Source: Octopus vulgaris
Lineage: Eukaryota
Direction of reading: 5' to 3'
Length of the DNA: 64,000 nucleotides
Assembly: GCA_951406725.2 (NCBI GenBank)
Contig: OX597838.1
Coordinates: 17,546,001-17,610,000, forward strand
Shown: piece by piece, positions 22,999 through 37,920 of the stretch
Layout: the number at the start of each line of letters is the position of its first letter
How positions within the stretch are numbered: the stretch's first letter is position 1
Program-made: the position numbers and the translations under genes
The notes under the pieces: generated by a model
The model's database searches: none
Told to the model about the DNA's origin: nothing
Seen by the model: the letters and a program-made list of their open reading frames with translations, nothing else

Positions 22999-23052
22999 AC
23001 ATTTGTTAAACTGTGTTGCATGAGAGTGAAGTTTTTCAAAAAGAAGTTTGAG
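22999..23052 (+). CDS. Hv-like voltage-gated proton channel, internal exon (end of S2 and S2-S3 linker): TFVKLCCMRVKFFKKKFE
   Basis: Polypyrimidine tract plus ctttgcag acceptor; GAG|gtaggt donor; 54 nt, phase 0/0. Joins the next exon to give KKKFE-VFDAFIV, matching the Hv F-F-x-x-K-x-E-x-x-D-A motif. Confidence 0.85.
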
Positions 23053-23214
23053 GTAGGTATTTAATTTCCCCTCATTACAATTTTAAAATGTTTAACGTTT
23101 TGATGAAACACTTCCACTCGTTTTTCTTTCCTTGTTTCTCTCTCTCTCCCCTTCTCCCTGTCACCTTCCTCTTCGGTTTTTTCTCTCGCACCCTCCCTCC
23201 AACACCACCTCAGA

Positions 23215-23690
23215 GGAGGCGCAATGGCCCAGTGGTTAGGGCAGCGGACACGCGGTCGTAAGAATGCGGTTTCGATTCCCAGACCGGGCATTCTGAGTGT
23301 TTATTAAGCAAAAACACCTATGCTCCACGAGGCTGCGGCGGGGCAGGGGTGGTGAACCCCGCTGTACTCTTTCACCACAACTTTCTCTCGCTCTTTCTTC
23401 CTACTTCTGCCACAAAGCAGAGGAACCGTGGTGTAACCCACTATGGTGTGGTAAACTTCCAGACCCTAGTCAAGATTGCGAATCCTTTGTACCCCAGGAT
23501 GGTTCAGCTCTCCACCCGTTAAAAGCCACCGTTTACGGAATGAGGATAACAACGTAGCTTTCGCACCCGTGCAACCACCAGCTTATCGCGTGTGGTGGGT
23601 GGATTTTCAAGTTGCCACATGCATTCTTAGTAGCTTAGAGTAGGCTCGAATTAGAGATTATTCTTTGTGGCTAATGGCGTGAGTCCTGAT
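23215..23690 (+). mobile_element. SINE family B head joined to a roughly 270-bp repeat also present at 17150-17402
   Basis: B head at 23215; 23420-23690 matches 17150-17402 (ccccaggat..agctctccacccgttaaaa..gctaatggcgtgagtcct). Confidence 0.75.
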
Positions 23691-24140
23691 TGGAAGAAGA
23701 AGGGGAGAAGAAGAAGAAGAAGAAGAAGAAGAAGAAGAAGAAGAAGAAGAAGAAGAAGAAGAAGAAGAAGAAGAAGAAGAAGAAGACACCACCTCACACT
23801 GTTTGCTCTCTCAGTTTCTCAGCCTCTACTTCCCAGCGACCTTGTATGTAACCCCTCTCAACCAGCTATAAATACACAGCTTCGAATCATCCAACCGTTT
23901 TTTCAAAGCAGAAAAAAAAAAACATTATTTAGTACTAAATATGATGAACATAAATATCTAACAAAAGATACGAATACTATGGCTGCATTGTTTGTTTTTT
24001 TTATCATAGATGTTTTCGATCAAAATTGATCTCGAGTTTAACAAAAACAACAAACAACTCACCCTCGCTACTCCTCTCTTTCTCTAGATCTCTATTTTCC
24101 TCTTTTCTCCTCTCTTCTTTTCTTCTCTCAATCTCTCTTT

Positions 24141-24364
24141 CTTATTTCTTTATTGCCCACGAGGGGCTAAACATAGAGGGGACAAACAAGGACAGACAAA
24201 CGGATTAAGTCAATTACATCGACCCCAGTGCGTAACTGGTACTTAATTTATCGACCCCGAAAGGATGAAAGGCAAAGTCGACCTCGGCGGAATTTGAACT
24301 CAGAACGTAACGGCAGACGAAATACGGCTACGCATTTCGCCCGTTTCTGCCAGCTCGCCGCCTT
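24141..24364 (-). mobile_element. SINE family A
   Basis: Reverse complement of the 4497 monomer. Confidence 0.85.
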
Positions 24365-24880
24365 CATCTCTTCAATCTCTCTTTCACTTCTCTTCTCTAC
24401 CTACCTCTCTCTCTCTCTCTCTCTCTCTCTCTCTCTTTTGTACCTCCACATATCTGTTGAGCATGTTAGAAATAGCCGTTAGACCTTCCTCAAATCTGTT
24501 GGACACACTTGACTGTCGTAGTTCCATTTGCACTTTAGATAAGCAGAAATCAATATATAACAGTTAAAAAGCATTCGACCGATTATAATGTCTAATCGGT
24601 CAGTCTGCCGTGAGATAAAACAACACCACCGACTACTAGTACTACTACTACTACATGTATTATTTAAGCTACTAGGGATGACTGAATCCCCATTGAACAT
24701 GGTGTGTCTTCAAGATCAAGACAACCAAGAGAGAATCCTTTTCTTTAGCGTGTTACCCACGACCAGATATACTTTGGTACGAGTTAAATTAAATTTCAAA
24801 AGCTCCACATTGAACCGAGCCTGTAACTTCTACCGCTCAAAGCCTTTTGTACAGACTTGTTTGTACTGTGTCATAAATAT

Positions 24881-25162
24881 CACGTGATCAAGTGACCGAC
24901 CAGACCATCAGATGTTGCTACACATCGCTGGTCACAATGCGTTCGCATTGTTTTAGCCTTGGATGACGCCACTCCGCTGGCTAAGCGAGCAGGCCAACAG
25001 AAGAAAGAGAGAGAGAAACAGTGGTGAAAGAGTACCACCCCCTGCCGGACCCTCGTGGAGCTTTTTCGCTCAATAAACACTCACAACGCCCGGTCTGGGA
25101 ATCGAAACCGCGATCCTGCGACCGCGAGTCCGCTGCCCTAACCACTGGGCCATTGCGCCTCC
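24881..25162 (-). mobile_element. SINE family B (tail type 3)
   Basis: B head on the minus strand, distinct tail; TSD gtcataaatat (24870-24880 and 25165-25175). Confidence 0.85.
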
Positions 25163-34766: not shown

Positions 34767-35362
34767 CTCTTTTACTTGTTTCAGTCATTTGACTGTGGCC
34801 ATGCTGGAGCACCGCCTTCGCCTTTTAGTCGAGCAAATCGACCCCAGGACTTATTCTTTGTAAGCCTAGTACTTATTCTATCGGTCTGTTTCGCCGAACC
34901 GCTAAGTTACGGGGACGTAAACACACCAGCATCGGTTGTCAAGCGATGGTGGGGGAGACAAACACAGACACACATACATACATTTATATATATATGTATG
35001 TATATATATATATATATATATATATATATATATATATATATATATATATATATATATTAAATTAGAGATAAAACCACTATTAGGCAAATCAAACAATGAA
35101 AAACTTAAGCCAATACATAAAATTAATTAATTTATATTATTTTAAATATATATCAAAATATTAAAAATTTAATAAAAGATAATGAGTAAAACACATATAT
35201 ATATGCGACGGGCTTCTTTCAATTTCCGTCTACCAAATCCACTCACAAGGCTTTGGTCGGCACGAGGCAATAGTTGAAGACACTTGCCCAAGGTGCCACG
35301 GAGTGACCCTTTACCCGGAACCATGTGGTTCGTAAGCAAGCTATTTACCACACAAACACTCC
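34767..35362 (-). mobile_element. SINE family C with an insert in its (TA)n tract
   Basis: Both halves are recognisable; insert 35057-35190 shares taaattagagataaaaccactattaggcaaatcaa with 63611-63644 (inverted). Confidence 0.75.
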
Positions 35363-36040
35363 TGGTGCGAAGCTTCAAGGTGTTGGGAAATATAAACAGA
35401 ATTGTTTCTTGTCTTATAATTGCAGAATTATAAAGTTATAAAGCTTTTGTGTGGTATGATGGTGTAACACTTTATAGCAATAGCTGTTTGCTGGAGTCGT
35501 TTAATGTAATAATTTAGCGACTTCTGGGAGTAGACTTGTCCAAAGTTCCATGCAGTGGGACTGAACCCATATTTTGGTTGGTGATGCTGTGGGTGAAGTT
35601 TTAGAGAATTAACGTGGGCATGTTTTATAACGCTAAATGTCGTATACTGAAGAGAAAATTGTACCTTAAGGTTGTGGATATTACATGCAATATGGAGTGG
35701 AAGTGAAGTAAACAACTAATGAGTGAAATACTCCGTAAAATACTTTTTTATAGTGTATCAAGATTTAGAGGAATCATAGACGGAAGTAGAAGATGAACAG
35801 GGGTATAGTGTGTTTAGAGTTCATCTAATACCGAGGTTCTGTGGGTGCTTGAACGCTGGTTCATTGAGGTTAAGAGTGTAGGAAAAAATATCGAGTAAAG
35901 CCCGCGTTTTTAAAAGTGTTAATACTTTTAAATTAAAGTTTTCGTGTAGGGTAGAACCTTTCCTATGTAAGCGCTCGGGAAATTTATTCTAATTAAATTT
36001 GATACATTATTGACTGAACAAATTGAGGAGATGTCACTTG

Positions 36041-36623
36041 GTGATGGAGCTGGCAGAAACGTTAGCACGCCGGGCGAAATGCTTAGCGGTATTTCGTCTG
36101 TCGTTACGTTGTGAGTTCAAATTCCGCCGAGGTCGACTTTGCCTTTCATCCTTTCAGGGTCGATAAATTAAGTACCAGTTACGCACTGGGGTCGATGTAA
36201 TCGACTTAATACCTATGTCTGTCCTTGTGTGTCCCCTCTGTGTTTAGCCCCTTGTGGGTAATAAAGAAATAGGTATTTCATCTGTGAGTTCAAATTCCGC
36301 CGAGGTCGACTTTGCCTTTCATCCTTTTCGGGGTCGATAAATTAAGTACCAGTTACGCACTGGGTTCGATGTAATCGACTTAATACCTGTGTCTGTCCTT
36401 GTTTGTCCCCTCTGTGTTTAGCCCCTTGTAGGTAATAAAGAAATAGGTATTTCGTCTGTGAGTTCAAATTCCGCCGAGGTCGACTTTGCCTTTCATCCTT
36501 TCGGGGTCGATAAATTAAGTACCAGTTACGCACTGGGGTCGGTGTAATCGACTTAATACCTATGTCTGTCCTTGTTTGTCCCCTCTGTGTTTAGCCCCTT
36601 GTGGGTAATAAAGAAATAGGTAT
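36041..36623 (+). mobile_element. SINE family A trimer
   Basis: Headed copy plus two headless units joined by aaagaaata|ggtatttc; units 2 and 3 share a short internal deletion. Confidence 0.9.
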
Positions 36624-37259
36624 GTATTGAATAAAACGTTTCACCATTGCACACGAACACACAGAGATTGCTTATAGAAGATATAGAAAAACTGCGTATT
36701 ATAAAAGGTGCTGAGTCAACGTTATCTTAGAAATATTTAACTAGTGCTGGTATTTTGAGTAAAACAACCCCTTTGGAAAAGTATTCAAAGGAAAACGAAA
36801 GTGGAAAATCTAGCTGTCATATTGGAATACTCTGACTAACTCATTCCCCATCACCTCTACTCGAGAACTTTAATTTTGTTTCGTATATGTAGAGTTAGAA
36901 TACGAACCAGAATATTTAGATCGGTATTAGTTCAGATGCCGCATTAGTTCAGCTGCCTTCTATTATGGCAACTAAAAAGAAATGAGTTTGTGAGAATTAC
37001 TAGTAAAGAGGAGATAAATTTGTATGAGTTGTTAGTAAGGGGGAGATAAATTTGTGTGTTGTGTGAGTAAAGGGGAGATAAACTTATTTGATGCGTGAGT
37101 AAAGGAGAGTCTTCTTTGCTGGAAAGAGTTTTGATCAAACCATGACAGGCTCTGTTTCACAGTACATCAACTTACTTTATTCTACAATTAAATTAAACTT
37201 TGTTATTTCATTGTTTTATTTTAAAACTGTAAAATCGATTCGTTTTTCTTTATACTAAA

Positions 37260-37773
37260 CTAGCAGTATCGCCCGGCGTTGCTCGGGTTTGTAAGGGAAA
37301 TAACTATATAAGCATTTTTAGAGAGTTACTTCCCTTATAGATGCCAATTCGGGCTTTCTTAGCCATTTCTGTTCTGGTGTCTTCAAGCCATGAAGTCGTT
37401 GTTCTAAAAGAACGCTGGTCTCCTTGACAACGCTTTACGACGTTGATTTCCTTACACTCCCTTCCCCACAGCTTCACGAGGGAGGGAAGAAGGGGGAAAA
37501 GCAACACAGGTGCAGGTGTGACCGTGGACGCCAACTCCGACGCCATCGACACACGAAAAAATATGCATTAAAATGGAATAAAAATTTATGTTAAATTATT
37601 TTTAAAATCGTAGACTCATCGTAGACGCGCGCTAATTCCCAGACGGGCTCGATATGAATCACGACTATAAGATACCCGAATTTGGTTAAACTGCACCGCA
37701 AAATGTGGGAGTAGTTAGGAATCTAAATCGAAGGGGACAGACACTCACACAACTACAGTTTTATATATATAGA
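37260..37773 (-). mobile_element. Non-autonomous Helitron (same family as 30236-30635)
   Basis: Reverse complement starts A|TCtatatatataaaa and ends cccgagcaacgccgggcgatactgCTAG|T; shares its 5' part with the 30236 copy. Confidence 0.85.
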
Positions 37774-37884
37774 TATGTTTATCTCCTCTCTCACATCACT
37801 ATTTTTAATTTTCTTTCTTTCGATCTTTTTTATACCAATAATTTTCCTCTATTTTCTTTTTTTTTTTTTTGCTGTGTTTTCTAG

Positions 37885-37920
37885 AGTTTTGACGTGGCAA
37901 CACAAATGACCTACCTGTGA
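37885..37920 (+). CDS. Probable terminal coding exon of the Hv-like gene: SFDVATQMTYL*
   Basis: Long T tract plus ttttctag acceptor, phase 0, ends in TGA; followed by repeat-poor sequence resembling a 3' UTR. Confidence 0.65.
   Translation, partial: SFDVATQMTYL

Follow-up and report, generated by a model that had tools for sequence, protein, structure and literature searches.

A spliced Octopus vulgaris gene of the Hv3-type proton channel family belongs to a molluscan subfamily with a predicted glutamate selectivity filter

Proton channels of the Hv type are recognized by four transmembrane segments (S1 to S4), an Asp or Glu at the selectivity site in S1, a Trp in S4 and at least two positive charges around that Trp (PMC10911540). 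Among them, an unconventional Hv3 family has been delimited by an xPWRxxR signature in S4, a large intracellular domain and a very large S1-S2 loop (PMC10377628). The Aplysia channel AcHv3 (XM_005094218/LOC101855857; 980 amino acids (aa), with an Asp in S1), whose S4 reads LPWRxxR, was described as proton-selective, weakly voltage-dependent (about 60 mV per e-fold) and leaky (PMC10911540). Both this family and its distribution among molluscs have been published, with Octopus bimaculoides credited with four putative Hv genes and the sequences of four Aplysia xPWR proteins given in the supplement; up to eleven Hv genes are given for molluscs, with four recorded as of that 2023 review (PMC10377628). 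Filters made of Glu are mentioned in its main text, where the word 'glutamate' occurs four times, only for some insects and for large Limulus channels. One of them, EtHv1 of a stick insect, is a natural Glu channel reported to be proton-selective with inward current (PMC10377628, PMC8804609), and the substitution D112E was reported to leave H+ selectivity intact in Hv channels of human, dinoflagellate and insect origin while shifting human gating by -11 to -15 mV (PMC4969798). Here we analyze a stretch of 64,000 nucleotides (nt) of the Octopus vulgaris genome (contig OX597838.1, positions 17,546,001 to 17,610,000), hereafter the window, which holds the six 3′ exons of a real, spliced mollusc Hv3-type gene. 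We assign this gene to a subfamily that is sister to AcHv3 and in which the S1 filter residue is predicted to be a Glu.

The six exons, here called A to F (Table 1), have AG at all six acceptors and GT(A) at all five donors, their phases agree (0,1,0,1,0), and together they make up 1062 nt that encode 353 residues followed by TGA. A preliminary description of this DNA had proposed six exons with canonical splice sites and matching phases, together with a two-arginine LPWRxxR voltage sensor, and had remarked that the open reading frame (ORF) track misses the exon carrying S3 and S4. The exons were borne out at the predicted coordinates with an open frame of 353 codons, S4 reads LPWRVVR and so carries the xPWRxxR motif, and none of the 49 plus-strand ORFs of at least 60 aa spans exon B in frame. 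When the product was aligned to human Hv1 (residue numbers follow the human sequence given in PMC10377628), the Trp codon at 27491 fell on W207, with two positive charges beside the Trp (WRxxR), and 289 residues followed the N214 place as a large intracellular domain. The transmembrane parts inside the window are the end of S2, S3 and S4, and in ten orthologues 198 to 709 residues precede the equivalent of exon A. Scans of the window with S1 and early-S2 profiles and with tblastn gave nothing credible (best independent E-values (iE) 0.37 and 0.32), so that S1 should lie upstream, across an intron apparently longer than 23 kb; the preliminary description had rightly placed the S1 selectivity residue outside the window. 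The introns are crowded with microsatellites and interspersed repeats, and no exon overlaps an interspersed repeat.

The bare LPWRxxR motif appeared five times in 100 shuffled windows. The exon that carries it is nevertheless not a chance occurrence, because the 46 residues of exon B match 14 of 25 candidate proteins with E-values of 1e-16 to 1e-18 and 85-93% identity, the 12 named matches being gastropods and one bivalve. Both endpoints of exon B are shared by single-exon gene calls in other genomes (14 chosen examples), and profiles made from pieces of the orthologues had their top matches at the predicted sites of exons A (22999, iE 0.003), D (iE 2e-11) and F (37888, iE 0.03). Splicing was checked by aligning contigs of four public runs, presumed to be RNA, to positions 31150-34700. 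Exon E is present in 20 of the 24 listed runs, none of these 20 being registered as RNA. Matches of the contigs start at 31212 and stop at 34579 in all four runs that were aligned, and in three of the four the contigs contain the 31327>31955 junction (GT..AG) as well as exactly 73 letters from the end of exon C to the start of exon E, matching exon D in length. Beyond exon C they also reach 349, 751, 1642 and 1951 nt further in the 5′ direction, and beyond exon E 647-677 nt further in the 3′ direction; since these upstream extensions exceed the 193 nt of exons A and B together, further 5′ exons must exist. Thus, two of the five junctions in the preliminary description (C-D and D-E) are seen spliced, while the joins A-B, B-C and E-F lack direct read support. 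A pseudogene or a mis-joined set of exons might be argued from these three junctions and from the presumed nature of the runs, but it is scarcely credible: the 353 codons hold no stop or frameshift, they are colinear with the orthologues through the last residue, and the intron-free contigs represent two organisms and as many as four studies. We therefore rejected it on the intact frame, the colinear orthologue match and the spliced contigs.

The preliminary description had called the gene a cephalopod orthologue of Hv3. The sighting was correct and so was the family, since the gene is spliced and falls in the unconventional, Hv3-type (xPWRxxR) Hv family, but the paralogue was wrong: judged by its sequence, the gene belongs with the Aplysia protein XM_013090418/LOC101852977, in a sister group to AcHv3 that we call the Glu clade. 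Exon B is identical to its counterparts at 43 of 46 residues in abalone and in Solemya and at 42 of 46 in Biomphalaria, against 21 of 46 in AcHv3; two octopus-named paralogues reach 21 and 25 of 46. Over 100 residues the window product shares 37% identity with AcHv3 versus 56-71% with the Glu clade. Our trees were unrooted and built from xPWRxxR proteins only, leaving aside TMEM266 and canonical Hv1. In the tree of 59 rows (58 longer xPWR proteins selected from those retrieved, and the window product; 131 columns), the window product fell in a clade of 13 rows with support of 100/100 and a long stem branch (0.93), a mollusc-type placement, while AcHv3 (P0113) fell in a separate clade of eight rows and the octopus proteins LOC106869300/LOC115214246 stood on the AcHv3 side. 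An approximately unbiased (AU) test on 48 rows and a quick tree, in which the tested group was named from the orthology claim of the preliminary description, rejected the union of the window product with the AcHv3 clade (p-AU 9.8e-6, log-likelihood 74 lower).

A direct orthologue of AcHv3, with an Asp in S1 and the same proton leak, would share with it the LPWRxxR motif, as the window gene does, and the same exon B boundaries, which are common to the whole family. Such orthology is very improbable and we rejected it on the separate clades, the AU test and the low identity in exon B; moreover, the AcHv3 side is already occupied by octopus-named proteins, and the tail after S4 counts 289 residues in the window product versus 535 in AcHv3. 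The two proteins do resemble each other in the xPWRxxR S4, the missing first arginine (R1), the large loops and a coiled-coil helix after S4. However, AcHv3 differs from the Glu clade in its S1 Asp, in Thr109 and Leu150, and in a longer tail with another end motif. LOC101852977, which is not itself a row of the tree, has an S3-S4 segment that by eye is the same as that of the Biomphalaria protein P0011 (the 42 of 46 match above), a Glu in S1, and post-S4 helices and a FYVNDGY-type motif like those of the window gene, although its S1-S2 loop is far longer than in the abalone or Solemya members. We found no cephalopod-named protein within the Glu clade among the matches obtained, one search having scored 8000 candidates.

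The hallmarks of the Glu clade were read from an alignment of 46 chosen rows, 14 from the clade and 32 other xPWRxxR proteins, with three partial clade rows that lack S1 set aside. At the D112 column, Glu occurs in all 11 clade rows with S1 and Asp in all 32 others, and a hidden Markov model (HMM) alignment also places the clade Glu on human D112. The filter residue of the octopus gene, anticipated as an Asp by the preliminary description, is therefore most likely a Glu. At the F150 column, 13 of 13 clade rows with the column have Met and all other rows have Leu, Met or Ile, so that the whole xPWRxxR family has lost the Phe of the hydrophobic gasket. All 11 clade rows that cover position 109 carry Val or Ile there, against Thr in AcHv3 and a residue other than Val in 29 of the 32 other rows; AcHv3 is thus altered at both gasket sites (109 and 150) and the Glu clade at one. 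The S3-S4 loop has a mean pairwise identity of 86% with 8 of 12 columns invariant (13 clade rows), compared with 41-72% in three other clades. A motif resembling [FY]-x-N-x-x-[FY] was found in all 13 clade rows considered and in none of the 32 others, and nine of 13 clade rows (eight of 12 besides the window product) end in [TS][YH]L. From consensus patterns we take the Tyr/Asn motif to be a putative sorting signal and the T-Y-L tail to be presumably a PDZ-type ligand.

Two further observations concern the relatives of this clade. LPWRxxR also occurs in nemertean and annelid proteins, namely P0025 (Tubulanus), P0041 (Lineus) and P0055, P0067 and P0095 (Owenia). A nemertean LPWRxxR sequence is printed in the supplement of PMC10377628 as well, while the text of that review calls the S4 proline absent from both phyla; the proline may be older than the review proposes. 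In an Asp-type paralogue of octopods (P0125, P0127 and P0128; three of 32 rows), Gly stands at the place of the S2 counter-charge E153, by which one more pairing of gating charges would be lost.

Table 1. Features of the Hv3-type gene in the window (positions counted from the first nucleotide of the window)
Feature	Positions	Strand	Basis
Exon A, 54 nt: end of the S2 helix and S2-S3 linker	22999..23052	+	AG/GT, phase 0
Exon A, the first of the gene within the window: equivalents of K157 and E171	22999..23052	+	orthologue alignment
Exon B, 139 nt: S3, S3-S4 loop, S4	27377..27515	+	protein matches, alignment
Exon B: D174, V178, F182, D185, W207, R208, R211 and N214 equivalents kept	27377..27515	+	alignment
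S3-S4 outer loop DSQWYETGKDA	27431..27463	+	clade alignment
S4 signature LPWRVVR: R1 (R205) replaced by Leu, Pro preceding Trp, two Arg	27485..27505	+	aligned to human Hv1
Exon C, 116 nt: helix continuing S4, likely coiled coil	31212..31327	+	spliced contigs, abalone model
Exon D, 73 nt: last part of the long helix, plus a short one	31955..32027	+	spliced contigs, profile match
Exon E, 644 nt: mildly hydrophobic helix (conserved), poly-Ala and acidic tracts, motifs RRxTxP and YYINNGY	33936..34579	+	
YYINNGY motif in exon E	34454-34474	+	
Exon F, coding part, 36 nt including TGA: tail ends T-Y-L	37885..37920	+	profile match

Within exon E, the acidic (GAC)n and poly-Ala expansions (34060-34360) exceed those of eight aligned orthologues, and the length of this tract is identical in two spliced contigs. 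Just ahead of it, at 33960-34020, the mildly hydrophobic helix that follows the long post-S4 helix is conserved across the clade and is possibly membrane-associated. The Pfam search gave no match for exon B and only low-complexity matches below cut-off for exons E and C, nor did it give any family in three of three clade proteins; Rfam and tRNA scans of the window returned nothing. Between exons E and F, a 174-bp unit is repeated three times head-to-tail at 36110-36623 with 96% likeness; it comes from a repeat family that matches the window at up to 18 places. Short frames at 3679-4326, 6970-7452 and 19936-20346 resemble what we take to be LINE reverse-transcriptase fragments.

Other proteins share the pore-less voltage-sensor fold, notably TMEM266/c15orf27 and Ci-VSP, and the preliminary description had named a grouping with TMEM266, voltage-sensing phosphatases (VSP) or CatSper as counting against its assignment. 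A profile of 11 orthologues clearly favored Hv1 (E-value 3.8e-17 for human Hv1, 0.02 for Ci-VSP and 0.14 for CatSper1), and human Hv1/HVCN1 (PDB 5oqk) was the best solved-structure match of the clade profile by sequence. The human Hv1 residues from K157 to N214 listed in Table 1 are all kept in the window product, whereas human R205, L206, H168 and G215 are replaced by Leu, Pro, Lys and Ser; in the orthologues D112 is replaced by Glu and F150 by Met, and the long loop and tail also differ from human Hv1. VSP was rejected: these proteins lack the S4 Trp, which the window product has, as well as the S1 acid, and they carry a phosphatase domain, while exon E showed no phosphatase family and the Ci-VSP E-value was poor. 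CatSper and other six-transmembrane channels were rejected on the sequence after S4, which consists of an extended polar helix plus a single stretch of mild hydrophobicity, and on the CatSper1 E-value. TMEM266 proteins are described as having RxWRxxR and no S1 acid (PMC4969798), unlike the LPWRxxR of the window product, on which we rejected this assignment as well. The AlphaFold model of the abalone orthologue (P0005) predicts four helices with confidence; S1 extends far outward, and S4 continues into a long helix (continuous from 335 to 406). By structural comparison this model has a voltage-sensor fold (Z 13.5, root-mean-square deviation 4.1 and 134 residues aligned to the voltage-sensor domain of Ci-VSP). 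Ci-VSP ranked first by fold, with a Foldseek E-value of 0.08; Foldseek gave no match at an E-value of 0.001, and the 50 listed fold matches did not include human Hv1.

By analogy with the channels described above, the window gene likely encodes a proton-selective channel with weak voltage dependence, partly open at rest, which is the reading that we favor with some reserve. Proton selectivity in itself is quite likely, and we regard the chances for and against an AcHv3-like leak as about equal. The S1 segment upstream of the window would carry a Glu at the D112 place, and this Glu would pair with the two remaining arginines of S4 and confer H+ selectivity. The loss of R1 and the S4 proline would lower the gating charge, as in AcHv3, while the change from Asp to Glu and the loss of the gasket Phe would shift opening toward more negative voltages. 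The helix after S4 would dimerize, and the Tyr/Asn motif and the PDZ-like tail could direct the channel to a defined membrane domain or organelle, with control of the local pH as its presumed role there. The nearest functional precedent for the predicted filter is EtHv1, although that channel is described as having typical Hv features (PMC8804609) and the window gene has LPWRxxR; we found no functional test of a Glu filter combined with LPWRxxR in the literature searched.

Several points weigh against this reading. Removal of R1 alone was reported not to cause a leak in human or mouse Hv1 (PMC10911540), and human Hv1 bearing F150A or V109T singly was reported to show no closed-state leak, unlike V109A/F150A, which leaks (PMC6754559). 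The Glu clade may seal better than AcHv3 because it keeps Val/Ile109, versus Thr109 and Leu150 in AcHv3. With Ci-VSP as its first match, the fold comparison cannot tell Hv channels apart from the remaining voltage-sensor proteins. Neither S1 nor the greater part of S2 of the octopus gene is seen in the window, direct read support covers C-D-E only, and no functional test of any Glu-clade member was found in the literature, most subscription journals being beyond our search. In this light, the 'proton leak channel' of the preliminary description appears as a carry-over from the paralogue, which shares only 21 of 46 residues in S3-S4 and has Thr/Leu rather than Val/Met in the gasket. The double change of Thr109 and Leu150 in AcHv3 is itself a candidate cause of its leak, by comparison with human V109A/F150A.

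The same residues lend some weight to a tightly closing proton channel, in which two arginines and a Val/Met/Val gasket would allow real voltage gating with little or no leak. The Val/Ile109 of all 11 clade rows and the absence of leak in human Hv1 with single gasket changes or R205A agree with it, but the sole tested LPWRxxR channel, AcHv3, is nearly voltage-independent, and simulations by its authors unwind S4 ahead of the proline (PMC10911540). The AlphaFold model of the abalone protein, in which the helix is unbroken through this proline, neither shows nor excludes a kink. Altogether, we consider tight closure unlikely, though it is the foremost alternative to the weakly voltage-dependent channel proposed above.

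Less probable again is a non-conducting sensor of voltage or pH that acts as a scaffold, like TMEM266, and signals through the outer loop and the PDZ-like tail. The long stem branch followed by strong conservation, the clade-specific loop and tail motifs, and the loss of the H140 equivalent in the bivalve members (Lys in five of 13 clade rows) could be explained in this way. Nevertheless, the clade keeps the S1 acid, the Trp and two arginines that serve as sequence criteria for Hv channels (PMC10911540), and the c15orf27/TMEM266 proteins are described as lacking the S1 acid and having RxWRxxR (PMC4969798). More speculatively, and with a low likelihood in our view, the Glu subfamily could be a separate kind of proton channel whose gating has been handed from voltage to an outside signal, with the S3-S4 loop and the S1 extension forming a cap to which a partner or ligand binds, and with the channel anchored at a synapse or secretory membrane by its PDZ-like tail. 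If true, this would mean a ligand-tuned proton conductance in molluscan neurons.

Parts of this subfamily have been in print. As a putative Hv channel, LOC101852977 appears in Fig. S1 and in a table of PMC10377628, earlier mention of the Glu clade may exist in supplementary figures (FEBS J Figs S2, S11 and S12), and the octopus gene is probably already publicly annotated as an uncharacterized locus. A fuller study of mollusc Hv channels was announced in PMC10377628 and PMC10911540; within the same limits of our literature search, we found no later paper on the family, and no functional report or discussion of LOC101852977 beyond its listing in the review.

What emerges is a subfamily kept across snails, bivalves and Octopus vulgaris in which a predicted Glu filter is paired with a two-arginine, proline-bearing S4. 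It offers a natural experiment on whether the leak of AcHv3 comes from the lost arginine and the proline or from a weakened hydrophobic gasket, and the Glu clade is informative on this cause because it has the S4 arginine loss and the proline in common with AcHv3 but keeps Val109. The gain is therefore not a new system but the correct assignment of the octopus gene and a sharp test of the Hv3 leak.

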